64,000 bases of DNA from Candidatus Omnitrophota bacterium (GTDB lineage: Bacteria > Omnitrophota > Gorgyraeia > Gygaellales > Profunditerraquicolaceae): contig JAQUQW010000001.1 of NCBI GenBank assembly GCA_028716245.1, positions 549,925 through 613,924 on the forward strand, in the 5' to 3' direction. A program made the translations under genes and the position numbers. Positions 2,401-58,551 of the stretch are shown piece after piece (position 1 is the first letter of the stretch; the number at the start of each line of letters is the position of its first letter). Below the pieces are notes generated by a model that worked only from the letters and a program-made list of their open reading frames with translations, was not told where the DNA came from and made no database searches.

Positions 2401-2474
2401 TCGGGGCGACAGGACTTGAACCTGTGACCTCAGCGTCCCGAACGCTGCGCTCTACCAAGCTGAGCCACGCCCCG
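2401..2474 (-). tRNA. tRNA-Pro (anticodon CGG)
   Basis: Reverse complement CGGGGCGTGGCTCAGCTTGGTAGAGCGCAGCGTTCGGGACGCTGAGGTCACAGGTTCAAGTCCTGTCGCCCCGA folds into a 74-nt cloverleaf: 7-bp acceptor stem, D-arm GCTC/GAGC, anticodon stem CAGCG/CGCTG with loop TTCGGGA, T-arm ACAGG/CCTGT. CCA is not encoded. Confidence 0.9.
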
Positions 2475-6004: not shown

Positions 6005-7213
6005 TTAAAGTTCCAACTGATGCCCTAGTTTCTCTTTTTTTGTTTTTAAATATTTATAATTTTCCGCGTTGGGCGCGATCTCTAAAGGCAGGCGCTCGGA
6101 AACCTCCAGGCCATAACCTTCCAGACCCACAATCTTGCGCGGATTATTCGTTAACAACCTGATCTTTTTAACCCCTAAATCTACCAGGATCTGGGCTCCG
6201 ATCCCGTAATCGCGCAGGTCAGCCTTATGCCCTAATGCTTCATTGGCTTGGACCGTATCCATTCCCTTATCCTGAAGATTGTACGCGCGTATCTTCTCAA
6301 CCAATCCAATCCCCCTGCCCTCCTGGTTCATATAAAGGATTATCCCTTTTTTCTCGCGGGCAATAATCTGCATGGCTTTCTCTAACTGCCGGCCGCAGTC
6401 ACAGCGTAATGAACCAAAAACATCTCCGGTTAAACACTCTGAATGCACGCGCACCAATATCGATTCATCAAACCCGCTCCCCATGCACAAAGCAATATGG
6501 GTTTGGCCATTGGTTTTATCGCGATAAATAGTTAACTTAAATTCTCCGAATTTTGTGGGCAATTTAGTCTGGACAACCGCTTCCACTAATTTTTCTCTCC
6601 TGCGGCGATATTCAATCAGGCTGGCAATAGTGCAGATCTTTAAACTATGCTTTTTGGCAAACTCCCGAAGCTGCGGCAGGCGGGCCATGGTCCCGTCATC
6701 ATTCATAATCTCACAAATCACTCCGGCAGGATAAAGCCCGGCCAGGCGCATTAAATCCAGGCTGGCTTCAGTATGCCCTGCCCTGACTAAAACCCCGCCC
6801 AGGTGGGAACGTAAAGGGAAAATATGCCCCGGACGAATTAGATCCTCCGGCTTAGCTTGAGGATTAATTAAAACTTCAATTGTCTTAGCCCGGTCATGAG
6901 CCGAAATTCCCGTAGTTATCCCGTGAGCCGCGTCCACTGAAATCATCCAGGCAGTTTTAAAAGGATCTTCTTTGGAAGCTGCCAGGGTATTCTTAAGCAT
7001 CGGGTCAAGCTCCAGGAAGCGCAGCCTTTCCTCCTCCATTGGAACACAAATAAGCCCCCGGCCGAATTTAGCCATAAAGTTTATATCTTCAGGCTTGACG
7101 CTTGAGGCAGCCATCACTAAATCACCCTCATTTTCGCGGTCCTCATCATCAATGACGACCACCATCTTACCGGCTTTTAAATCTTCGATAATTTCTGGAA
7201 TGGTGTTAAACAT
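6005..7213 (-). CDS. ribBA: bifunctional 3,4-dihydroxy-2-butanone-4-phosphate synthase / GTP cyclohydrolase II
   Basis: 402 aa: an N-terminal DHBP synthase domain and a C-terminal GTP cyclohydrolase II domain with the CxCxRQ zinc motif (CDCGRQ). Confidence 0.9.
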
Positions 7214-7256: not shown

Positions 7257-7271
7257 CGTATTGATTTTAAT

Positions 7272-7490
7272 CTTCTCTCATCTGGACTTTCCCATATAGA
7301 AGCAACACCCCGCGCTAAATGGAATCACGCGGGTGTCCATCTGCATGGACCATCGGCCCTGGAATCTCACCAGATCTGCGGGCGCCTGCATCTTTGCGCC
7401 TGCTCGCGGGCTTTTCACTTGGCGCTATTAGGAAGCGCCGGTGCGCGCTTGTTGCGCGACCGCCGGTAAGGATTTACACCTTGCCCTAAA
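7272..7490 (-). promoter_or_regulatory. FMN riboswitch (RFN element) aptamer
   Basis: Minus strand: GGGCAAGGTGTAAATCCTTACCGGCGGT...CCAAGTGAAAAGCCCGCGAGC...GCAGATCTGGTGAGATTCCAGGGCCGATGGT...AGTCCAGATGAGAGAAG. These match the conserved RFN blocks. The element is GC-rich relative to its surroundings and lies upstream of ribBA. Confidence 0.9.
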
Positions 7491-7505
7491 GATTAATTGT
7501 CTATT

Positions 7506-9604: not shown

Positions 9605-10848
9605 AGTTTTAATTCCCCCGCTAAGTCATACTCTAAAGTATCGGTAATTTTGGCCTTCACAAATTCACCTTCTAAAAGCCGCTTCTTACTATTCACATAA
9701 ACCATTCCGTCTACCTCCGGGGCATCTGCCTGGCTGCGGCCGATATATACGCCATCCTGTTTTTCTTCAACAAGGACTGAGATAGTTTTGCCTAAAAACC
9801 TGGAATTTAATTCCGCGGCTATTTTCTGCTGCGCCGACATAATCGCCGCAAACCTCTCCTGCTTAAGCTTGCGGGGAATTTGCCCTTTAAAGCTGTAGGC
9901 CGCAGTTCCTTCTTCCCGGGAATAAATAAAAACCCCTAACCTATCAAATTTTACCTCTTTAACGAATTCAAGCAACTCGTTAAATTCCTTCTTTGTTTCC
10001 GAAGGAAAACCTGCGATCAGCGAAGTGCGCAAACAAACACCGGGAATTTCCTTCCTGATCTTGCCGATTAAAGATACGATTTCCTGCTTGGTAATTTTAC
10101 GATTCATCAGCTTCAGGATACGGTCATTGATATGCTGTATGGGCAAATCAATATATTTACATACCCGTTTACAAGAAGCGATTAACTCCAGCAGTTCATC
10201 GGTAATACGTTCGGGATTTAAATACAAAAGCCGAATCCAGCCGATATCAGGCGAATTCTTGATTATTTTTTTTAAAAGCCCGGCTAACTGGCTTGCCCCG
10301 CCAAGATCTACGCCAAACCCGGTTATATCCTGGCCGATGATATTAAGCTCTGAAATTTTCTCCCGGTTAAAACGCCTGACTTTTTGAATTATTACTTCTT
10401 CATCCAGGCTTACCAGTTTACCTTTAATCTTAGGGATTACACAATAGCTGCACTTATTCAGACAGCCTTCACATATTTTTAGATAAGCGTAGTGCTTAGG
10501 AGTTAGAGCAAACCTTAATTGTTGCTGGTTTGGCCCCGGCGTTCCCACAAAAGCATCAACTTCGGGCAGCTGGTTTTTTAAATCCTTATAACGCTGCGCC
10601 AGGCATCCGTGAACAATTATTTTTTTAAGCTTTCCTTGCTTTTTTAGCTCGATCAGCTCAAGGATAGCATCAACTGACTCACGTTTTGCTTCTTCAATAA
10701 AAGCACAGGTATTTACTAAAACTACCTGTGCGTCTTTTAAGTCATCAACAATAGAATAGCCCTTAGAACTAAGCCGTCCAAGTATGTTTTCAGCGTCTAC
10801 CAGATTCCTGGGGCAGCCTAGACTTAATACCCCTAATTTCTGCTTCAT
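9601..10848 (-). CDS. rimO: radical-SAM methylthiotransferase, ribosomal protein S12 methylthiotransferase RimO-like
   Basis: LGCPRNLVDAE N-terminus, LTPKHYAYLKICEGCLNKCSYC radical-SAM motif and a C-terminal TRAM domain. Confidence 0.75.
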   Translation of the reverse strand: MKQKLGVLSLGCPRNLVDAENILGRLSSKGYSIVDDLKDAQVVLVNTCAFIEEAKRESVDAILELIELKKQGKLKKIIVHGCLAQRYKDLKNQLPEVDAFVGTPGPNQQQLRFALTPKHYAYLKICEGCLNKCSYCVIPKIKGKLVSLDEEVIIQKVRRFNREKISELNIIGQDITGFGVDLGGASQLAGLLKKIIKNSPDIGWIRLLYLNPERITDELLELIASCKRVCKYIDLPIQHINDRILKLMNRKITKQEIVSLIGKIRKEIPGVCLRTSLIAGFPSETKKEFNELLEFVKEVKFDRLGVFIYSREEGTAAYSFKGQIPRKLKQERFAAIMSAQQKIAAELNSRFLGKTISVLVEEKQDGVYIGRSQADAPEVDGMVYVNSKKRLLEGEFVKAKITDTLEYDLAGELKL

Positions 10849-11630
10849 CTGGAAATTTTTAAGCCTTCTTTATTGATCAGGATATTTTTCAAAGGCTTTC
10901 CGCGCCTGCCCAGATTAGGAAAACGCTGGTCATTAACCTGCAACTCTACTGCTCCGGCATCCCCTAACGACAATTCAATTTTTTCTTTAGCGCGCCAGGT
11001 TTCGCTCCTGCCACGCGTAAGTACTCCGTGGAAAATAGTTTTACCGTCGGCTTTAGCGGATACCCAGGATTTATTGCGGGCAAATATCCCCACCGTAAGC
11101 CCCTGAACCAGATCTTTGGAAACCTTGTTCTGCAGGGTGGCGGATTTTGGCACAGAAGTAACCATAAGAACTTTGGCTCTTTCTAAAGGGCTCTTTTTGC
11201 GCGAAAAAATAAACTTGATCAAATTAACTCCTAAAAATATAAAAATCAACGCCAGTACCGCCAATACAGCTATTTTCTTAAGGTTAACCGAAAGGTTCAT
11301 GGTATTTAATTTCATTGAAGCATCTTTAATAAAAGAAGTCGTATTTTCAATACGCCCTCCTAGCGGCCTGCCGACAGTGGCATTCAATACCGGCTTAGTC
11401 GGCGGCTGGCTGCTTGAACCGATATATTCTTTGGGATCAAGACCGAGCGAACCGCAATAAATTTTAATAAAACCTTTTAAATAAATCGGGCTTAAATTCG
11501 AGATACTGTCGCCTTCGATTGCGCGCAAGACGTTAAGATGGATTTTAGTCTTCTTCTGTATGTCTTCAAGGGATAAGCCTTTTTCCTGACGGATCTTTTT
11601 TAGCCGGGCTCCGGCTGTTTCGATATTCAT
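10845..11630 (-). CDS. rodZ: RodZ-like cytoskeleton protein (N-terminal XRE HTH, TM segment, C-terminal DUF4115-like)
   Basis: ARLKKIRQEKGLSLEDIQKKTKI HTH, then a hydrophobic segment, 261 aa. Confidence 0.6.
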   Translation of the reverse strand: MNIETAGARLKKIRQEKGLSLEDIQKKTKIHLNVLRAIEGDSISNLSPIYLKGFIKIYCGSLGLDPKEYIGSSSQPPTKPVLNATVGRPLGGRIENTTSFIKDASMKLNTMNLSVNLKKIAVLAVLALIFIFLGVNLIKFIFSRKKSPLERAKVLMVTSVPKSATLQNKVSKDLVQGLTVGIFARNKSWVSAKADGKTIFHGVLTRGRSETWRAKEKIELSLGDAGAVELQVNDQRFPNLGRRGKPLKNILINKEGLKISR

Positions 11631-11662
11631 GGTTTTTCTACCTCCTTGGCCACAAGGCCATA

Positions 11663-11735
11663 CCCGCGTAACTCCTTATAAACGCGGGGTATTGCCCACA
11701 AGGGCACACCCGCGCAATTCCTTATTCGCGCGGGG
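11663..11735 (-). repeat. two GC-stem hairpins whose loops contain TAAGGAG/TAAGGAA, in the ftsK-rodZ intergenic region
   Basis: cccgcg/cgcggg (11663-11688) and cccgcgc/gcgcggg (11709-11735). The second hairpin straddles the ftsK stop codon. Confidence 0.5.
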
Positions 11736-19440: not shown

Positions 19441-22353
19441 TTAGCGGATTACGGCAAAGGGGCAAATTTGGTTATAAGCGCAATAAGTGCAGGCTTTGTA
19501 TTCGGGTTTGGCCGGGTACTCTTGCTGGCGAATACCCTTAGAAACGATCAGAATATCCTCTTTTACTTCCTCTATTTTATCCTCGGTAACCTTATGCCTG
19601 CCGACAATCCCGGACTCTAAGAAGTATAACTCTACCGCGGCAGGCAAGACTCCGGAAATGTGCTGATAGGCCAGGGCATAAAGGATCAACTGCTTATTTT
19701 CCTTGACCCGCTTGTCCGCGTCCTTCTGGGTTTTGATCTCGGAGGTCTTAAAATCCATAATCACCGCTCCGTCATCCCGTATATCGATGCGGTCAAACCT
19801 GCCGGTAATCTTATTGCCTCCGATAACAAAAGAAAAAGGCTCCTCGATAAATTTGGGAGTCAAATTACGCCTTTCTTCATCCTTATAAAATCTGGATAAA
19901 GCCTCCCTGCCGATGCGAAAACGCTCCTCCTGATGATTAGAATCTAAAAAACCCTGCGGATCAAAACTAGCTTCAAAACAATCCAGGAGTTTATCCATAG
20001 ACACCTTTTCCCCTTTAAGCTTACGCAATAAATATTGGCTGACTGCCTCGTGCATTGCCCGGCCGTAAATAACCGTATGATGCTCCATAATCGGCACGCG
20101 CAGGATATTGACATATTTATATTTTAAAGGGCAGGTCAGATAATCATCGATCTGATAATAACTTAAAGTGATTAACTTATCTTCCGGGATTTCCTGGAGA
20201 GCTGATTTCGACAACTCCTTAACCGGAGTAAAACGCTGGATACTTTCAATCGCCGCGGTTTTTTTCTTTTCCACTTCTTCCACGGATTTTTTACCTAACG
20301 CCTCCAAGACAAATTGGCTTACCTTACGCAGGCGCTTGCCGCCATAATCATCAGCGCTGGTTAAATACAATTCTTCTTTGGAGCGGGTCATTCCCACATA
20401 AAAAAGCCGGCGCTCCTCCTGAGTATGAAAATCTCCGGTCGGCAAAACTTCTTTAATCAAAGCATCCGGCAATTCGATTTGCTGTGAACGTCTAGGCAGG
20501 GGAAATTTTCCCTGTACCAGGCTGACTAAAAATACCGCTCTAAATTCCAAACCTTTAGCTTTATGGATAGTCAAAATATTCACCGCATCCTGATCTAGGT
20601 CCGCCTCGACTGTCGGCGGGTCATCTCCGGAATCAATCAAGAGGTTAAGGTGTTTGATAAAACTAATTACTCTGTCCTCTTTAGCGATCAGTTCATAATC
20701 ACGCACCTGATTAAAAAATTTAGCGATGTTTTGAATCTTAGCTTCTTTTTCTAAAGTTGGATTATGGGTTAAATATTTAAGATAACCCGTATCAGTCAAA
20801 AAACTATACAGCAGCCTGCCGGTTGTCTCATTACGGGAAACCTGCAGAAATTTTTCAATTTCTTCAAGCACCCGCTTTATTTTATCCTTAGTCTGGTCCT
20901 GAACCTGGGCTAACTCCGGGATCTTTTCCAAATCGCCAAACACCGAATAAAGCGAACGGTTCCTGCGCCGGGCAAAGTGGTTGCACAATGTCAAATCAGC
21001 TAGGTTTACTTTATAGATTTCAGAACTTACCAGATAATATAAACTTAATGAATCCGAAGGATTGGCAATTACCCGCAGGAAATTAATACACAACTTGACC
21101 TCTTCCCGGGCGTATAAACCCTGGTTACCGCTAAACTGCCAGGGAATATTCTGCATATTCAGCGACTGGATAAAACTTTGGGCATCGGAATTGGAGCGCA
21201 CCAGGATGGCAAAATCCCTATACTTAAACTTACCTAAACTTACTTTATCTAGTATAATCTTACTTACATTATCAGCCTCAGCCGAATGCGTATCAAAGTG
21301 CAAATGGATTGGCTTTTCGCCCTTTTTAGTCAAGCCGATCAGGTGTTTATCGATTTTAGCTTTGACCTCAAAACGCTCGGGATTATTATTTTGGATCAAC
21401 TGGTAGGCGCTATCTAAAATTGGCTGGGTCGAGCGGTAATTCTGGATCAGGGTAATTTTTTCAGCATCAGGATATTCTTTATTGAAATTTACCAGATTAC
21501 TGTAGGCAGCTCCGCGCCAGCGATAAATACACTGGTCATCATCTCCGACAACCGTAACATTTTTTAAGGAGCCGGCAAGCAACTTGACAATTTGGAACTG
21601 CGCAAAATTAGTATCCTGGAATTCATCAACTAAAATATATTTAAATTGTTTCTGGTAATTCTGTAAAACCAAAGGATGCTCCCGCAACAGTTGTAAACTT
21701 AAATAAAACTGATTGCCAAAATCAACCAATCCTTCTCTGGCCAAAAGTTCCTGGTATTTAACGTAAGAAGCGGCTACCTCCATCTGCTGCGCTGCCAATT
21801 CTTCCGTGGCTTTGTCTTCCGGATTGCTCTTGGCCTGGATTAGAAAATCCTGCGCGTATTTTAAATACTCTTTGGCTGAAATATCCTCATCTTTTGCCCG
21901 GCTAAAAAATGAAATCAGCGCTTCGATAAAACGGGTGGGCTCAGCTAACGGCCGGTAATAATCAAGCGTGAATTCAAAAAGATGCTCGCGGAAAAACACC
22001 GCTGCCTCCGGCTGGGTGAGCACCTTAAAATCCGGATTTAATCCGGCAACTAAAGCGTTCTCGCGCAAGAGACGATCACCAAAAGCGTGAAATGTAGAGA
22101 TCCAAATATCCGTATAACCGTAAGGCATCAGGATATCCACCCTTTCCTGCATTTCCTTAGCTGCCTTATCGGTAAAAGTAAGCGCTAAGATTTCATCGGT
22201 CTTGGCCAAGCTCTGATTAATCAACCAGGCAATGCGCTGGGTAATTACGCGGGTCTTGCCCGTCCCCGCGCCGGCAATAATTAAAAGCGACCCGTCTTTA
22301 TGGGTAGCCGCCTGCACCTGCTCTTTATTTAATCCTTCTAATACTTTATCCAT
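19441..22353 (-). CDS. UvrD/PcrA-type superfamily-1 helicase fused to a C-terminal Cas4/AddB-like PD-(D/E)XK nuclease with a Cys4 cluster
   Basis: N-terminal GAGTGKT Walker A and UvrD motifs. The C-terminus has TCPLKYKY, DFKTSE and C-x2-C-x5-C (CTYCAYNQIC). Confidence 0.8.
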   Translation of the reverse strand: MDKVLEGLNKEQVQAATHKDGSLLIIAGAGTGKTRVITQRIAWLINQSLAKTDEILALTFTDKAAKEMQERVDILMPYGYTDIWISTFHAFGDRLLRENALVAGLNPDFKVLTQPEAAVFFREHLFEFTLDYYRPLAEPTRFIEALISFFSRAKDEDISAKEYLKYAQDFLIQAKSNPEDKATEELAAQQMEVAASYVKYQELLAREGLVDFGNQFYLSLQLLREHPLVLQNYQKQFKYILVDEFQDTNFAQFQIVKLLAGSLKNVTVVGDDDQCIYRWRGAAYSNLVNFNKEYPDAEKITLIQNYRSTQPILDSAYQLIQNNNPERFEVKAKIDKHLIGLTKKGEKPIHLHFDTHSAEADNVSKIILDKVSLGKFKYRDFAILVRSNSDAQSFIQSLNMQNIPWQFSGNQGLYAREEVKLCINFLRVIANPSDSLSLYYLVSSEIYKVNLADLTLCNHFARRRNRSLYSVFGDLEKIPELAQVQDQTKDKIKRVLEEIEKFLQVSRNETTGRLLYSFLTDTGYLKYLTHNPTLEKEAKIQNIAKFFNQVRDYELIAKEDRVISFIKHLNLLIDSGDDPPTVEADLDQDAVNILTIHKAKGLEFRAVFLVSLVQGKFPLPRRSQQIELPDALIKEVLPTGDFHTQEERRLFYVGMTRSKEELYLTSADDYGGKRLRKVSQFVLEALGKKSVEEVEKKKTAAIESIQRFTPVKELSKSALQEIPEDKLITLSYYQIDDYLTCPLKYKYVNILRVPIMEHHTVIYGRAMHEAVSQYLLRKLKGEKVSMDKLLDCFEASFDPQGFLDSNHQEERFRIGREALSRFYKDEERRNLTPKFIEEPFSFVIGGNKITGRFDRIDIRDDGAVIMDFKTSEIKTQKDADKRVKENKQLILYALAYQHISGVLPAAVELYFLESGIVGRHKVTEDKIEEVKEDILIVSKGIRQQEYPAKPEYKACTYCAYNQICPFAVIR

Positions 22354-25436: not shown

Positions 25437-26021
25437 CTACTTCGACAACGACATCTCTTCTTTTAAAAATTCTGCTTTGTTGAATTTACTGATAAATCTT
25501 CCCTGGTTTAACTTGTTTTCAACAGTTAGAAGCTCATTATATAAATATATCAAACTATCGAAACTTGAAGGATCTTTTTCTCTTTCGCGTTTAATATACT
25601 CTTCTAATAAAAAATAATATCCGTGAAGCCAATAAAAAAACATTCTCCACAGAACTTCTTTGTCAAGAACTCCTTTTCGAAATAGAATTCCTATTGTTCC
25701 AAAGAATTCAAGCACGCCCCCCTCATCTTTACAATGATTCTCGTGACAACTTTCAATAGACTTGGCAGTTTTCTTTCTAGCATCCATCATTTCGCGACTG
25801 TTAAAACGTTCATCTAGTTTTAAAATTATATCAATATTCAAAACAAGTCTGGAACGATGATTCTCCTGGATAACTGCCCAAATTGCAATTACAGCTGCAG
25901 CTACGGTCCCCCATGCACTAATCATTTCATAATGCTGAAATTTAGGGAAACTCTTTATGAGTATTATAGTAGTCAGAACCCAAAGAGCAGCAATAGTAAG
26001 CCATTTTTGCAATTTATTCAC
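25437..26021 (-). CDS. hypothetical membrane-anchored protein
   Basis: 194 aa with two N-terminal TM helices. Inferred GTG start preceded by AAGGAGGG. AT-rich codon usage. Confidence 0.45.
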   Translation of the reverse strand: MNKLQKWLTIAALWVLTTIILIKSFPKFQHYEMISAWGTVAAAVIAIWAVIQENHRSRLVLNIDIILKLDERFNSREMMDARKKTAKSIESCHENHCKDEGGVLEFFGTIGILFRKGVLDKEVLWRMFFYWLHGYYFLLEEYIKREREKDPSSFDSLIYLYNELLTVENKLNQGRFISKFNKAEFLKEEMSLSK

Positions 26022-26168: not shown

Positions 26169-26275
26169 AGCGGGTGACGATGGCTGGATTCGAGGACGCT
26201 TCAGGCGGCCGAGAAACAGGCATCGGCAGGACCCGCGTAAACCGAGATTGCTTCGTCCGCCTTCGGCGGACTCGC
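26169..26275 (+). ncRNA. GC-rich structured element A (AGCGGGTGAC...GGCAGGACCCGCGTAA) plus a UUCG-tetraloop hairpin, candidate ncRNA or leader upstream of rpmB
   Basis: About 62% GC against an AT-rich background. Closing helix GCGGGU/ACCCGC, inner helix CGATG/CATCG, then GTCCGCCTTCGGCGGAC. Confidence 0.45.
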
Positions 26276-26304
26276 AATGACACGGAATTCGTATATATTC
26301 TAGC

Positions 26305-26332
26305 TTGACAACGCCGGGATTTCAAGTATACT
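26305..26332 (+). promoter_or_regulatory. rpmB promoter TTGACA-16-TATACT
   Basis: TTGACA at 26305-26310 and TATACT at 26327-26332. The RBS AAAGGA lies 8 nt before the ATG at 26362. Confidence 0.55.
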
Positions 26333-26361: not shown

Positions 26362-26616
26362 ATGCTTAAAGAATGCGTAATCTGTAAAAAAGTCGCCCTT
26401 ACCGGAAAAGTTTTATCCAGAAAAGGACAGTATAAGTCCAAGGGCGGAACCGGTTCCAAGATCGCCCGCTGGAGCAAACGCAAATTTCTGGCCAATCTTC
26501 AGACTGTGCATATAGTAGTTAATGGCACGCCGAAGAAGGCCTACATCTGCACCAAGTGCATCAAAAAAGGCAATTTCCAAAAAGCGGTTCCCAGAAAACC
26601 CAAACCTGCTATTTAA
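26362..26616 (+). CDS. rpmB: 50S ribosomal protein L28 (zinc-ribbon type)
   Basis: CVICKK...RKFLANLQTVHIVVNGTPKKAYICTKC matches the bL28 consensus (RRFLPNLQ...VNG.PKK.Y.S). Overlaps recJ convergently by 8 nt. Confidence 0.85.
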   Translation: MLKECVICKKVALTGKVLSRKGQYKSKGGTGSKIARWSKRKFLANLQTVHIVVNGTPKKAYICTKCIKKGNFQKAVPRKPKPAI

Positions 26617-52834: not shown

Positions 52835-53430
52835 TTTAAAAAGCTCTTTCGATGAATAGCTGCAGGCCCAATTTGTTTTAAGATGTCCCGGTGCATTCGC
52901 GTCGGATACCCCTTATGTTTAATAAAACCGTATTGCGGATAAATTTCATGGTAAGCATCCATAATCTGATCCCGCCGGACTTTTGCCAATATGCTCGCGG
53001 CGGCAATACTTAGGGATTTTCCATCCCCCCTGACAATGCTCTGATAAGGAAGTCCCAGCTTAAAACGCATATTGCCGTCGATAAGCACAAAGGCGCGTTT
53101 TAATTTTACCGGATCACACTGCCTGACTAATTTAGAGATTGCTTTTTGCATGGCCAAAATTGTAGCCTGCAGGATGTTGATCCGGTCAATCTGCTTATGG
53201 CCGACTATTGCTATTGCGTATAAAGATTTGCTTTTTATTTCAAAAAACGCGTCTTTTCTTCTTGCGGGAGTTAGTTTCTTAGAGTCATCAATACGATTGT
53301 CGAAACGAAAATCCTTTAACCACACTGCTGCAGCCACTACCGGCCCGGCTAACGGGCCGCGTCCGGCCTCATCCACGCCGATAATTAAATCAAAACCTTT
53401 ACCTTTTAGTTTCTTTTCGTAGCGCAGCAC
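52816..53430 (-). CDS. rnhB: ribonuclease HII
   Basis: LIIGVDEAGRGPLAGPVV motif, 204 aa. Confidence 0.9.
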   Translation of the reverse strand: MLRYEKKLKGKGFDLIIGVDEAGRGPLAGPVVAAAVWLKDFRFDNRIDDSKKLTPARRKDAFFEIKSKSLYAIAIVGHKQIDRINILQATILAMQKAISKLVRQCDPVKLKRAFVLIDGNMRFKLGLPYQSIVRGDGKSLSIAAASILAKVRRDQIMDAYHEIYPQYGFIKHKGYPTRMHRDILKQIGPAAIHRKSFLKCLKTN

Positions 53431-53786
53431 TAACTTGTTGCTTCTTCCTTACTTTCTATTTTAGTAGCGTGCTTGCCGACCTTTTCCCTTAGGTAGTAAA
53501 GCTTGGCTTTTTTAACTTTACCGGAACGGATCAGCTCAATACGCTCGATAACCGGAGAATAAAGCGGAAATACGCGTTCAATCCCCTCGCCGAAGGAAAC
53601 TTTTCTCACCGTGAAGTTAAGTTTGGCTCCGGAGCCGCTCTTGGCGATCACCACGCCCTCAAAAGGATGCAGGCGGAACTTATCCGGACCTTCCGGGATC
53701 CTGGTCAGCACCTTTACCGTATCTCCGACATTAATGGCAGGCATCTGCTTCTTGGCAAATCCCGCCTCAATTGATTTGATGTCCAT
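53430..53786 (-). CDS. rplS: 50S ribosomal protein L19
   Basis: MDIKSIEAGFAKKQMPAINVGDTVKV... The true start is the ATG at 53786, preceded by AGGAGG. The track ORF start at 53846 reads through the repeat element. Confidence 0.9.
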   Translation of the reverse strand: MDIKSIEAGFAKKQMPAINVGDTVKVLTRIPEGPDKFRLHPFEGVVIAKSGSGAKLNFTVRKVSFGEGIERVFPLYSPVIERIELIRSGKVKKAKLYYLREKVGKHATKIESKEEATS

Positions 53787-53800
53787 TCTTGTTGCCTCCT

Positions 53801-53884
53801 TTAAATGAGCGCTTAACTTACGAACACGATAGTGCGAGTAAGTCAATGCGCGAATTTATCCCGCCGAATAATTTGAGGCGGGAT
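53801..53884 (-). repeat. two-hairpin intergenic element, copy 4
   Basis: ttaaatgagcgcttaacttacgaacacgatagtgcgagtaagtcaatgcgcgaatttatcccgccgaataatttgaggcgggat. It sits between the trmD stop (53892) and the rplS SD. Confidence 0.85.
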
Positions 53885-53891
53885 CTTACTC

Positions 53892-55678
<1,787 letters not shown>

Positions 55679-55684
55679 TTAACC

Positions 55685-55769
55685 TTACGCGGGTCCTGCC
55701 TGCCAATCCACCTCGCCGTGCTCACTTTCGTTGCGCGCGGCAAGGGCTTCGTCTTGGCAGTCACCCGCT
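55685..55769 (-). ncRNA. GC-rich structured element B (AGCGGGTGAC...GGCAGGACCCGCGTAA), filling the queA-tgt intergenic region
   Basis: It has the same 10-nt 5-prime and 16-nt 3-prime termini as element A (26169-26240). Its inner helices differ in sequence but pair: CUGCCAA/UUGGCAG and CCUUGCCG/CGGCGAGG. Confidence 0.45.
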
Positions 55770-56760
55770 AAATAATTAACATTGCATCACCATAACTATA
55801 AAATCTATATTTATTATCCACTGCCTCTTGATATGCTTTTAACATCAGCTCTCTTCCCCCAAATGCGCAAACCAGCATTAGCAGAGTGGTTTTGGGAAGA
55901 TGGAAATTGGTTAAAAGGCAATCGACCAGTTTAAATTTATAACCCGGATAAATAAATAATTCGGTATTGCCTTCTTTGCGGCCGGCGGCATAAGTTTCCA
56001 GCGCCCGAAGCGCGGTAGTACCGACAGCGATAATCCTTCCTTTGTCGGCCTTTGCCTGATTAACCAAAGCAACCGTCGCATCGGGAACTAAAAAATATTC
56101 CGGTTCCATCTTATGCTCGGTTATATCTTCACACTTAACCGGGCGAAATGTCCCCAAACCCACATGTAAGGTCAGGTAAGCAAAATTAACTGATCCCTGC
56201 CGGATATCCTTAAGTAACTCCTGGCTAAAATGCAGGCCGGCGGTCGGTGAGGCCAGCGCCCCCGCGTTTTTTGCGTAAACCGTCTGATAATAGAGCGTGT
56301 CTAAATCCTCAGGCTCTCGCCTGATGTAGGGCGGCAAAGGGACAATCCCAAAATCATAGATTGTATCCGCGTCGGATTGTTTAAAACGGATCTGCCCGCG
56401 GCCGCTTATAACTCCCTTAATCTTACCGTCAGCGAAAAGGATATTTTCGCTGACTTTTGTGCGACTGGGCTGAATGAGGCAAGAAAAAGTTATCCCGTTG
56501 ATCCGCCGGGTCAATAAAATCTCCACTCTGCCCCCGGTTACTTTTTTGCCGATTAAACGGCAATGCAAAACTTTGGTATCATTAAAGGCCAATAAATCAT
56601 TTTTTTTAAGGAACTGCCGGATATCTTTAAATACGCTATGGATAATTTGGCCGCTCTTGCGATTGATAACCAGGAGCCTGGCCTCTTCCCTGTTTTTCAA
56701 AGGATATTGGGCAATTAATTCTTTAGGCAGTAAATAATCGAATTCAGCAAGTTTTAACAT
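55768..56760 (-). CDS. queA: S-adenosylmethionine:tRNA ribosyltransferase-isomerase
   Basis: FDYLLPKELIAQYP N-terminus, 330 aa. Confidence 0.9.
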   Translation of the reverse strand: MLKLAEFDYLLPKELIAQYPLKNREEARLLVINRKSGQIIHSVFKDIRQFLKKNDLLAFNDTKVLHCRLIGKKVTGGRVEILLTRRINGITFSCLIQPSRTKVSENILFADGKIKGVISGRGQIRFKQSDADTIYDFGIVPLPPYIRREPEDLDTLYYQTVYAKNAGALASPTAGLHFSQELLKDIRQGSVNFAYLTLHVGLGTFRPVKCEDITEHKMEPEYFLVPDATVALVNQAKADKGRIIAVGTTALRALETYAAGRKEGNTELFIYPGYKFKLVDCLLTNFHLPKTTLLMLVCAFGGRELMLKAYQEAVDNKYRFYSYGDAMLII

Positions 56761-56842
56761 AATTTAAATAGGGACAGCGACCATTTTTTAGATAAGATGC
56801 TGATTGATTAAAAAATAGTCGCTGTCCCTAATTTCTAATTTT

Positions 56843-58057
56843 CTAATTTAGGTAACCAATCACTTGATCAGTTAAATCGTCAATGGAGAAGATGACTACT
56901 CCGTCGGGAGCCAGCTCAGTAACCATCCGGTATTGGTTAAAGAACAGGTCCGGGTTATTTTTCATTAAAAATAACCCCAGGCCTATGTAAATCTTTCCCT
57001 TACCGCGGTGGCCAAGGCTGGATTTGACGATTTCCTTAGCGAACTGATTATCCTTAGTGTAAGCCATTAATACGGCATAATCGATAATCCCCTCTTCTAA
57101 CCAAGCTGACCAATCCTGGAAGGCGTTGGCATAGGCGCGCTCAGCCAACGGAATAACCGCGCAGGAAACAGCCAGGTTTGCGGATTTAACTTTAACTAAA
57201 CTTGAGATTTTACGCACTAATTCCGTAACCTGCGCTCGCCTCCAATTATCCCAGGCCAAATACTCATCTTCGTTATTCAACGTCTCCAGGCTGTTCAAAC
57301 CGGTTTTTTCTTTAAATCGCTCCACATTTTTTGCCCCATAGCCGTAAGAGAGGCCGAATTTATTAAACCTTGAACCCGGAGAAAACGGCACCGGTGAAGG
57401 ATAACGCAGGTAATCCAAATGTATCCCGCTAATTAATGGATAGCGGTTAATGATTTCATTAATGATTGTTAGGACATACTCCTCTACCCGGGGATCTCCG
57501 GGCTCAAGGAAGATCATATTCTCTCTTAAATAATACTTGTCCAGTTCCATATTCGAGACGCCTTTAGAAGGCCGCTGGTACTGGTCGCGGGTCAGAATGG
57601 AGGTGCCGTATTTATTTAAAATGTCCGCCTTTTCATTAACACCCAGACTTAAAACATTTACCCAGGCAAAAACATTAATATTATTCTCCTGCGCCTCCCT
57701 AAGCAAAAGGTCCAGAGTATCCAGGCCTGCGGCTTTAACCATCTGCTCGTATTTTATTTTATCGCAGATCTTAGAATCATAATAAGCATTACCGGATTGA
57801 AAAACCTGCAGGTAAATTTCATTTATCTTGGCTTTCTTACATTGGGCAATCAGCTTTTCCACTCCCTCCTTTGAATAAAGGATTTTTTTGGCGGAAAACA
57901 CCGATACCCAGATGCCCCGGCCGGAAGCTTTAACCTGAACTTGCCCGCCTTCAGCTAGAGCAAAACTGAAATTCAATAAAAAACCGAATAACAATAAAAA
58001 CAGTGTTTTAGCAACTTTCTTATTTTTTATTTTCATTTTTTTATTGAATACTTGCAC
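56843..58057 (-). CDS. glycoside-hydrolase-like family 10 (GHL10/DUF187) lipoprotein
   Basis: Signal peptide followed by a TIM-barrel-like GHL10 region (RGIWV...VFAWVNV), 404 aa. Confidence 0.55.
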   Translation of the reverse strand: MQVFNKKMKIKNKKVAKTLFLLLFGFLLNFSFALAEGGQVQVKASGRGIWVSVFSAKKILYSKEGVEKLIAQCKKAKINEIYLQVFQSGNAYYDSKICDKIKYEQMVKAAGLDTLDLLLREAQENNINVFAWVNVLSLGVNEKADILNKYGTSILTRDQYQRPSKGVSNMELDKYYLRENMIFLEPGDPRVEEYVLTIINEIINRYPLISGIHLDYLRYPSPVPFSPGSRFNKFGLSYGYGAKNVERFKEKTGLNSLETLNNEDEYLAWDNWRRAQVTELVRKISSLVKVKSANLAVSCAVIPLAERAYANAFQDWSAWLEEGIIDYAVLMAYTKDNQFAKEIVKSSLGHRGKGKIYIGLGLFLMKNNPDLFFNQYRMVTELAPDGVVIFSIDDLTDQVIGYLN

Positions 58058-58551
58058 CCGCAGTATTTTTGCAGATAAAGCCCTTTTACTTTGGCTTCTT
58101 TATACGCCTGCCTGAAACCAATCCGAAAATCTTCATAATAAAAATCCACGCCTGTTTCTTGGGCGATTTCTCCGCCTAACTGCTTAAGCCGCTGGTGATC
58201 CTGGTATGGGCTGACTAATAGGGTTGTGCTAAAGAACGGTATTGCGTTTTCCCTGGCATGTTCAGCTGTTTTTTGTAAACGCAGCGACCAGCAAATTACG
58301 CAGCGCTCCGGGGTATTTTCTTTAGCCTTAATTGCCCGGGAAAAATCGGATTCTTGATACTCGGGGCTCTCTACTCCAAGCCCTAAATCCCTGCTTAAAA
58401 CTTCCAAAGTTTCTTTACGCCTGCCATATTCCTGGCAGGGATAGAGATTAGGATTATAATAAAATCCTTTTATGCTAAATCCCCGGCCTTTTAACCTGCT
58501 AAAAGGATAAATCAAACACGGGCCGCAACAGATATGCAGTAGGATCTCCAT
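58033..58551 (-). CDS. queH: epoxyqueuosine reductase QueH (DUF208)
   Basis: HICCGPC motif plus downstream Cys residues, 172 aa. Confidence 0.8.
   Translation of the reverse strand: MEILLHICCGPCLIYPFSRLKGRGFSIKGFYYNPNLYPCQEYGRRKETLEVLSRDLGLGVESPEYQESDFSRAIKAKENTPERCVICWSLRLQKTAEHARENAIPFFSTTLLVSPYQDHQRLKQLGGEIAQETGVDFYYEDFRIGFRQAYKEAKVKGLYLQKYCGCKYSIKK

Follow-up and report, generated by a model that had tools for sequence, protein, structure and literature searches.

A structured element in the queA-tgt spacer of an Omnitrophota genome is probably one copy of a large, spread family of selfish hairpin repeats

The spacer between the queuosine genes queA and tgt in a 64,000-nt window of a Candidatus Omnitrophota bacterium (contig JAQUQW010000001.1; the window is the whole stretch of DNA that was analysed) was filled by an 85-nt structured element, termed element B. 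Element B is probably a selfish hairpin repeat comparable to repetitive extragenic palindromic (REP) sequences, transposable elements of the miniature inverted-repeat type (MITEs) and Rickettsia palindromic elements (RPEs), and one copy of a large spread family rather than a dedicated regulator of tgt. A second copy in the window, element A, shares its core. The coordinates of all features are as in Table 1, and loci from other genomes are referred to by number (L006, L014 and so on).

Folding of element B as RNA (AGCGGGUGACUGCCAAGACGAAGCCCUUGCCGCGCGCAACGAAAGUGAGCACGGCGAGGUGGAUUGGCAGGCAGGACCCGCGUAA, read on the minus strand from 55769 to 55685, with the ends AGCGGGUGAC...GGCAGGACCCGCGUAA) gave −44.5 kcal/mol compared to −29.0 ± 3.0 kcal/mol for dinucleotide shuffles (z −5.26), and none of the 200 shuffles was as stable. 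Element A gave −34.8 kcal/mol (z −4.86). The complement of element B was weaker as RNA (−39.1 kcal/mol), and element B as DNA gave −22.8 kcal/mol (z −3.45) in a fold that placed a G-C pair across the loop and left a 3-nt bulge. In the 5′ core, GCGGGU was followed by a G which pairs with the C of GGCAGG, an A opposite G in a non-canonical pair and a C which opens helix P2, while in the 3′ core the bulge at 55695-55697 (AGG, or GGA in the other register) was followed by ACCCGC, the 3′ arm of helix P1. The initial annotation, made from the letters of the window, had described an 85-nt structured element which begins in the queA TAG, spans the spacer and ends 10 nt before the tgt ATG; these limits were confirmed, with the last base located 10 nt upstream of the A at 55675. 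Both helices named there, CUGCCAA/UUGGCAG and CCUUGCCG/CGGCGAGG, the latter with a single U·G pair, were present in the minimum-free-energy fold, and the description of element B as a second copy of a structured motif agreed with its termini, which were exactly common to element A. The 10-nt head and 16-nt tail of element B each occurred exactly twice in the 64 kb, in elements A and B. Excess stability over dinucleotide shuffles and the existence of further homologues had been named as checks, and both were found; these outcomes do not discriminate between regulatory RNA and selfish hairpin.

A strict scan for GCGGGTGAC-N30-60-GGCAGGACCCGC with one genome per species, in which the core of the matches was identical by design, showed at least 120 loci. 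Among the 123 matches listed, 106 had a strongly self-paired interior, and the remaining 17 included non-hairpin chance matches in high-G+C coding DNA, to which the only two isolate genomes among the listed matches belonged, and a few true members whose interiors are weaker. As annotated, the hairpins belonged to at least 10 phyla and included Saccharibacteria (about 32), other Patescibacteria, Omnitrophota (about 18), Planctomycetota, Polyangia (Myxococcota), Solirubrobacterales, Acidimicrobiales and other Actinomycetota, Vicinamibacteria (Acidobacteriota), Nitrospirales (Nitrospirota), Gamma- and Deltaproteobacteria, one Coxiella-like genome and Bacillota. Mis-binning was rejected as the source of the cross-phylum spread as several copies were on megabase contigs. 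The strict core pattern had no matches in 2.9 million viral contigs, and a looser pattern used there as negative control had 80 matches with one hairpin-like, which indicated that chance matches are not hairpins and that sequence recognised as viral is essentially free of the family. A covariance model of the hairpin base with 53 positions (the "mini" model) scored element A at 29.8 bits and missed element B owing to its long interior, and was replaced by fuzzy pattern and pairing scans. Two or three members per 8-kb locus with one core mismatch were found in L073 (991, 1495 and 2746), L079, L028, L061, L107 and L010, which points to a high copy number in some Saccharibacteria genomes. The nearest relatives of elements B and A were in the Omnitrophota loci L047 and L053, in unrelated contexts, and L053 had an interior near-identical to that of element A. 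Among the sequences compared, the window proteins had their best matches in Omnitrophota loci (69% and 59% with synteny in L044, and 62% in L064). No description of the family was found in Rfam 15 or in the literature searched on the core sequence, on in-frame and RPE-like palindromes, on repeats of Saccharibacteria, other Patescibacteria and the candidate phyla radiation and on MITEs, the coverage of which was incomplete; PMC11109978 was considered and was not relevant to the family.

Generally, the members are G+C-rich imperfect palindromes of 60-95 nt in which P1 is lengthened by locus-specific pairs and a variable terminal hairpin of several subtypes is located above P2. The covariation and swap data together with the DNA fold give a model in which the conserved hairpin base starts with a 6-bp P1 (GCGGGU/ACCCGC), has three bulged nt on its 3′ strand (AGG or GGA) and continues through G-C, A·G and C-G pairs into P2. 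Across 86 distinct copies, the three pairs just outside the fixed core were paired in 81, 73 and 65% and the first two P2 pairs were formed in about 98%, both with four Watson-Crick pair types, and the covariation score was 0.405, whereas shuffles scored 0.117 and slid registers no higher than 0.12. Copies with one mismatch showed compensatory P1 changes (ACGGGU/ACCCGU, GGGGGU/ACCCCC and AUGGGU/ACCCAU), and three independent copies had a linked swap of GUGAC...GGCAGG to GUGGC...GACAGG, with one G·U variant. The interior of element B (type B) was aligned in 24 copies from Omnitrophota, Patescibacteria, Planctomycetes, Gammaproteobacteria, Actinomycetota and Acidobacteriota; its apex consensus was GC(G/C)CGCA(A/G)C-loop-G(U/C)GAG(C/G)AC and covaried at two pairs (G-C in 18 and C-G in 6 copies; A-U in 12, G-C in 10 and G-U in 2). 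A third subtype with a long GGGGG(A/U)CCCCC...A/U-rich stem was found in most Saccharibacteria copies. The earlier view of elements A and B as structural variants of one design was borne out by the stem outside the fixed core and the first P2 pairs, which covary over the 86 copies, and by the compensatory P1 changes in copies found without a forced core. In the Actinomycetota copies L009, L022, L058, L088, L089 and L094, the flanks lengthen the stem with CUCCUCC...GGCCGGAG, and the opposite strand of these flanks has a strong GGAGG ribosome-binding-like site adjoining the element.

The copies were found in unrelated contexts. Protein families that recurred as neighbours were only common housekeeping ones (ABC ATPases, SDR, Mur and similar), and the flank logos showed only R at −1 and Y at +1, which is one further base pair. 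Many copies occupied the full spacer between co-directional genes in either orientation. About one quarter of the copies were within long open reading frames (ORFs) with the reading frame open across the element, and in-frame copies were present in at least 16 genes in both orientations. Sense intragenic copies were found in Tgt, TsaD (two sites), MurB, TyrRS, MnmA, ArgRS and an RNA methyltransferase and used only two stop-free frames, AGD...QDPP or RVT...AGPA; the third sense frame holds a UGA (GCGGG-UGA-C), and the upstream ORF stopped exactly there in 11 loci. Antisense copies in GatA, MnmA, TopA, CysRS and RNase HII read AGPA...SPA. Alignment with insert-free orthologues showed clean extra loops of about 26 residues, and TopA in L079 had two in-frame copies. 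Intron-like removal or splicing of the RNA was rejected as antisense copies are also in frame in essential genes; for the same reason the in-frame inserts are, as read from the genes, tolerated and translated DNA. At the same CysRS site, L095 had an antisense copy, L006 a sense copy and L070 was empty, and L014 and L115 from one metagenome bin had copies of different subtype and opposite orientation at one site. Tandem copies 0.5-0.75 kb apart were present in L073 and L008. In element B itself, a GTG right after the queA stop opens a frame of approximately 32 codons (55764-55661, minus strand) which crosses the entire element and closes shortly after tgt begins. Intragenic copies use this stop-free RVT frame as well; here it is probably meaningless. 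Mycobacterial MIRU (mycobacterial interspersed repetitive unit) spacers have been described with a similar arrangement.

The initial annotation had implied a link to translation-apparatus genes, and a structured RNA acting in cis from the 5′ leader of tgt (for element A, from that of rpmB) to control translation-apparatus or queuosine genes is now highly unlikely, even though the hairpin is very stable and strand-specific and element B reaches the tgt ribosome-binding site. Such a role does not agree with a family found beside and inside unrelated genes of at least 10 phyla in both orientations and in frame within ORFs, and the variable interior rules out a common ligand pocket. A Rfam 15 search of the whole window at gathering thresholds showed an FMN riboswitch and a tRNA (2401-2474, minus strand) and nothing at the elements, and a search of 251 nt around element B at E ≤10 produced noise only (≤16 bits), with no match to preQ1-I, preQ1-II or preQ1-III riboswitches, ribosomal-protein leaders or self-cleaving ribozymes (hammerhead, twister, pistol, hatchet and HDV-like). 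For element A, the best rpmB promoter-like site had 11 of 12 consensus positions and the element was upstream of this site, not inside it, so that "precedes L28", as previously stated, is a matter of position only. Element A was also downstream of a divergent promoter-like site which points to the DUF4760 gene.

The queA-tgt spacer in relatives also weighs on the leader reading. A total of 80 metagenomic loci encoding QueA relatives were fetched and 38 were examined in detail. In nearly all, tgt followed queA, and the spacer was highly variable. The spacer was only 2-22 nt in L130, L132-L137, L144 and L148, and relatives with QueA and Tgt 76-84% identical to those of the window were without the element, with spacers down to 2-11 nt; in L130 (QueA 76% and Tgt 84% identical) the spacer was TAGCAGAAGAT-ATG. 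A+T-rich repeats filled the spacer in L122, L123, L126, L127 and L156, other nested palindromes in L121, L124 and L138-L147, and entire accessory genes in L121, L125, L129 and L160. The hairpin family was present in sense in L131, L129 and L125, 10-25 nt upstream of the tgt ATG, which would favour a leader. L131 and L129 had the type B interior of the window with compensatory P2 changes (11-16 nt before the ATG), and L125 another type B variant with P1 altered yet paired. In L199 and L128, a third interior was found in antisense, starting in or just past the queA stop, which argues against a leader. In most of the 38 loci, the spacer was empty or held something other than the family. With contents that vary between empty, other palindromes and the family in sense or antisense, the spacer is, judging from these relatives, a hot spot occupied repeatedly and differently and not a conserved leader. 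The queA TAG is by the same comparison native and not supplied by the element, because the empty-spacer relatives L130, L133 and L134 likewise end ATTATT-TAG.

Other insertions were also observed. The queA-tgt spacer of relatives held at least two further families of long nested palindromes (L121, L124 and L129; L138-L147 and L155), one starting GCCACUGGCAAGUUU...CUUGCCAGUGGC and another UGUUAAUGACGACACAACUUAUGGAGC...GUUCGUGCAUACAAUUUACG, which indicated that genomes of relatives carry several hairpin-repeat families. Accessory genes between genes that are adjacent in the window were found in L125 (3990-6581), L129 (3990-4967), L121 (3180-5093), L160 (606-1548) and L044 (3082-7315), often with a family member at one edge; these included small membrane proteins of no assigned family and, in L044, an oxidoreductase/ferredoxin/Hcp-like operon.

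Comparison of the two strands showed that in 87 of 105 copies the strand defined by the core gave a more stable fold than its complement. When only the interior was compared, a part not constrained by the search, the core strand was better in 83 copies versus 21 (Wilcoxon p = 1e-9). This asymmetry implies that one strand matters. The orientation of the element relative to the surrounding genes was even (21 loci same, 26 opposite and 18 mixed). In contrast, the core strand was on the C-rich strand in 50 loci versus 15 (loci below 55% G+C), in 45 versus 9 where the absolute skew exceeded 0.05 and in 15 versus 3 of the loci of mixed gene direction; by lineage, the counts were 26 versus 3 in Saccharibacteria and 28 versus 13 in other phyla. 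In the window, element A follows the majority pattern and element B does not. We infer a DNA-level, replication-linked process behind the orientation bias because the strand follows local GC skew and not gene direction, and this could be either strand-biased insertion or preferential loss of copies that expose the stabler strand on the lagging-strand template. IS200/IS605 insertion sequences (IS), REP sequences with their REP-associated tyrosine transposases (RAYT) and attC sites behave in such a replication-linked, strand-specific manner. The likeness to these systems is by analogy only; their defining features were looked for here, in the case of RAYT genes within 4 kb of the elements, and were not found.

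These strand data bear on a second RNA explanation, namely a functional RNA module (a small RNA, or a hairpin for protein binding, processing or stability) which is copied around genomes and selected in operon spacers for its effect on mRNA fate, with the conserved base as the site on the RNA where a protein would bind. The bulge and non-canonical pairs are conserved, A·G covaries to G·A, the apex covaries across phyla, the core strand folds better and many copies exactly fill co-directional spacers, all of which would suit such a module. It is nevertheless unlikely in view of the even orientation relative to host transcription, the antisense copies in essential ORFs, the orientation bias that tracks GC skew and the copies without conserved promoter or terminator.

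A DNA alternative is an attC-like recombination site, in which the folded strand is a recombinase substrate for gene cassettes and element B is a cassette boundary next to tgt. The architecture is parallel (conserved basal stem, strand-marking unpaired or extrahelical bases and variable terminal structure), accessory ORFs in L129, L125 and L044 are beside a family member and between genes that are adjacent in relatives, the tandem copies in L073 and L008 could resemble cassettes, and the better-folding strand tends to be the C-rich strand, as has been reported for attC bottom strands in chromosomal integrons. Direct reading, however, showed no GTTRRRY or RYYYAAC boxes, the neighbour search within 4 kb showed no integrase gene and no long array in any locus, and most copies were solitary. 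In-frame copies in housekeeping genes are unexpected for cassette sites, and the inserted ORFs of L121, L125 and L129 had no family in common with one another or with the DUF4760 gene of the window. An attC-like site was therefore considered very unlikely.

An ordinary hairpin, either an intrinsic terminator or a chance G+C-rich palindrome, would account for a stable hairpin at the end of queA but can practically be discarded. No U tract or terminator-like call was found at element B or element A, element B is inside an operon, its core is exactly common to more than 100 hairpins elsewhere, and chance matches to the pattern were not hairpins, so that this explanation is already contradicted by the family data. 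Other identities were rejected individually. A kink-turn, in which tandem sheared G·A and A·G pairs come after a 3-nt bulge on the same strand, did not fit as the helix 3′ of the bulge opens with Watson-Crick A-U and C-G pairs and the 2b position would be G, and a CUGAU..GAAAC-like string in type A resembled a hammerhead without the G8/A9 core positions. Signal recognition particle RNA, the bacterial selenocysteine insertion sequence (UGA plus hairpin), the bulge-helix-bulge splicing motif, FtsK-orienting polar sequences (KOPS), dif/Xer sites and retron msr were dropped on sequence grounds.

A selfish hairpin repeat is the probable explanation for element B, and its kind is already known, namely interspersed selfish palindromes of which some are in frame. 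One close description is that of the RPEs, reportedly by Ogata and colleagues in 2000, which are interspersed palindromes of approximately 100 nt with a conserved hairpin, found between genes and as in-frame translated loops and without a transposase of their own. RPEs are confined to Rickettsia and close relatives, whereas the present family has 21 core bases that are identical across at least 10 phyla, no taxon overlap, an asymmetric base (3-nt bulge and A·G) and, in some lineages, a skew orientation bias. RPEs are also mentioned in PMC3733652. Yeast mitochondrial GC clusters and fungal double-hairpin elements are G+C-rich mobile palindromes in A+T-rich genomes with characteristic AG flanks. 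They similarly invade spacers and, in frame, genes, but are organellar and eukaryotic and are unrelated in sequence. In attC sites, as here, the base alone is conserved in sequence, the rest is structural with a variable terminal part, unpaired bases mark the strand and the site is presumed to be folded single-stranded DNA (ssDNA); the present family differs in the lack of R/L boxes (GTTRRRY), integrase gene and cassette arrays and in its copies within ORFs. REP sequences and bacterial interspersed mosaic elements are likewise G+C-rich imperfect palindromes between co-directional or convergent genes, some intragenic, in several phyla, and are proposed to act as folded single strands (PMC3733652). 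REPs measure 20-40 bp, with stems of 8-9 bp and one end bearing an unpaired GTAG or CGTC tag (PMC3733652), whereas members of the present family are 60-95 nt, the conserved part is a paired stem with an internal bulge, there is no terminal GTAG/CGTC tag and no RAYT-like gene was seen within the 4-kb flanks. MITEs are also short, non-autonomous, multicopy and foldable, are co-transcribed with their neighbours and can supply stop codons or alter mRNA stability (PMC10969869). Bacterial MITEs (Correia/NEMIS, ERIC and BOX) carry terminal inverted repeats that match a parent IS, and are flanked by direct target-site duplications (PMC10969869); the flanks of the present family, in contrast, had no direct repeat or consensus, the outer bases were complementary and locus-specific and no parent IS was identified. 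The invariant asymmetric core across phyla, the modular interiors and the orientation bias appear to be new.

In the proposed mechanism, the element would probably act as folded ssDNA, and an enzyme acting in trans would recognise the asymmetric hairpin base on a single folded strand, as for attC sites and for IS200/IS605 and REP hairpins. Copies would survive only where harmless, either in operon spacers or in frame as translated protein surface loops, and element B would have landed, or been kept, in a spacer where palindromes are inserted as in a hot spot. There it is probably co-transcribed with queH-queA-tgt-trmD-rplS, and no convincing promoter was found at the element. Element B leaves the queA stop and the tgt ribosome-binding site intact. 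The Shine-Dalgarno-like AAGG of tgt begins within the last two bases of the 85-nt element, 3′ of P1 (the bases following the element are GUAAGGUUAAAAUAUG), and was touched by weak A-U pairing alone in a 146-nt fold with an ensemble frequency of 0.012. Element B is most likely a passenger hairpin in a polycistronic transcript; at most, it may act as a generic stable hairpin that slows 3′-to-5′ decay of the queA mRNA segment.

Several observations weigh against this explanation. Within 4 kb of the elements, genes for a transposase, recombinase or reverse transcriptase did not recur, and the flank logos showed no target-site duplication and no conserved flank, so that mobility is inferred from distribution. 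The GC-skew bias was absent in Omnitrophota (9 versus 7), the phylum of the window, and the skew analysis was made on 8-kb flanks with crude gene calls and loci that are possibly non-independent. All true hairpin matches came from metagenome- or single-cell-derived genomes. The AGG bulge, the swap between A·G and G·A and the type B apex mismatches (G·A and C·A) are kept precisely across phyla, and these conserved non-Watson-Crick features exceed the needs of a simple palindrome and would also fit a protein-bound RNA. Finally, a pairing-filtered scan of 404 kb of relatives' loci showed four family places, all in the queA-tgt spacer, and with the L125 copy found by eye all five copies were in this spacer, three of them just 5′ of tgt, which leaves room for a local benefit there.

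Other features of the window were also recorded. When up to 3 mismatches were allowed, the 16-nt tail of element B had 5 matches in the window compared to 0.43 expected, and 5 matches were reached in none of 100 shuffles. By reading, the non-exact matches at 22245 and 981 were in coding DNA (a helicase P-loop and a ligase-like gene) and the third at 11656 in an intergenic spacer beside an inverted repeat; none of the three was a member of the hairpin family. This inverted repeat (11651-11690, plus strand; AUACCCGCGUAA-CUCCUUAUA-AACGCGGGGUAU) has ACCCGCGUAA in common with the element tails, is located in the spacer upstream of a 261-aa ORF (10845-11630, minus strand) and could be an operator-like palindrome or a fragment. 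A second G+C-rich hairpin was found directly 3′ of element A (26247-26280, plus strand; GAUUGCUUCGUCCGCC-UUCG-GCGGACUCGCAAUG), and similar CCGCC-UUCG/UGCG-GGCGG hairpins were also within the long palindromes of L121, L124 and L129. One spacer upstream of element B, the spacer between the GHL10-family gene and queA was filled by an A+T-rich inverted repeat unrelated to element B (56766-56833; AAATAGGGACAGCGACCATTTTTTA/TAAAAAATAGTCGCTGTCCCTAATT) with 25-nt arms that are 92% complementary and an 18-nt loop. The FMN riboswitch (RF00050, 77.8 bits; 7266-7497, minus strand) had two large insertions (45 and 63 nt) compared to the model and was upstream of a 402-aa ORF (6005-7213, minus strand). The plus-strand GC skew of the window was negative throughout (cumulative −4.3) and nearly all genes were on the minus strand, which places the window within one replichore with its genes co-oriented.

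Table 1. Positions of element B, its parts, element A and neighbouring genes in the window.
Feature	Position	Strand	Description
Element B, as first delimited	55685-55769	minus	85 nt; fills queA-tgt spacer
Element B, family-conserved part	55689-55768	minus	80 nt
Element B 5′ core	55760-55768	minus	GCGGGUGAC; GCGGGU is the P1 5′ arm
Element B 3′ core	55689-55700	minus	GGCAGGACCCGC; G-G-C pairs back to G-A-C
Element B variable interior	55700-55760	minus	P2, internal loop, P3 and apex (RNA fold)
Element B P2	55754-55760 / 55700-55706	minus	CUGCCAA / UUGGCAG
Element B P3	55738-55745 / 55711-55718	minus	CCUUGCCG / CGGCGAGG; one U·G pair
Element B apex	55719-55737	minus	CGCGCAAC-GAAA-GUGAGCA
queA stop codon	55768-55770	minus	TAG; element B overlaps its AG
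Shine-Dalgarno-like site of tgt	55683-55686	minus	AAGG; 7 nt before ATG (55673-55675)
Element A	26169-26240	plus	72 nt; core of element B, other (type A) interior with tandem G·A pairs
queH	58033-58551	minus	in one gene run down to rplS
GHL10-family gene	56843-58057	minus	same run
queA	55768-56760	minus	same run; Pfam PF02547, E 1e-123
tgt	54563-55675	minus	same run; Pfam PF01702, E 2e-159
trmD	53892-54572	minus	same run
rplS	53430-53846	minus	same run
DUF4760 gene	25437-26021	minus	flanks element A
Best rpmB promoter-like site	26305-26332		
rpmB	26362-26616	plus	flanks element A

A stable, covarying hairpin beside tgt is easily filed as a riboswitch or leader, and the family data indicate that it should be masked as a repeat. 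Beyond element B itself, it is possible, and we propose it tentatively, that the family is a hitherto undescribed cross-phylum class of strand-asymmetric hairpins with interchangeable tops. Its members would colonise operon spacers and, in frame, essential genes in streamlined bacteria (Saccharibacteria and Omnitrophota, for example), move between phyla and be mobilised as folded ssDNA at the replication fork, through a widely distributed enzyme encoded elsewhere. If the family is indeed undescribed, as Rfam 15 and the literature searched suggest, a core kept invariant in Patescibacteria, Omnitrophota, Actinomycetota, Acidobacteriota, Myxococcota and others would be a rarity for so tiny a non-coding element. 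The family would then also be a second and much broader case of Rickettsia-style palindromic DNA translated within essential proteins, and the asymmetric base and replication-linked orientation would make the search for an ssDNA enzyme concrete and testable. It would also account for many unexplained Gly/Pro/Ala-rich insertions of approximately 26 residues in proteins of the candidate phyla radiation.

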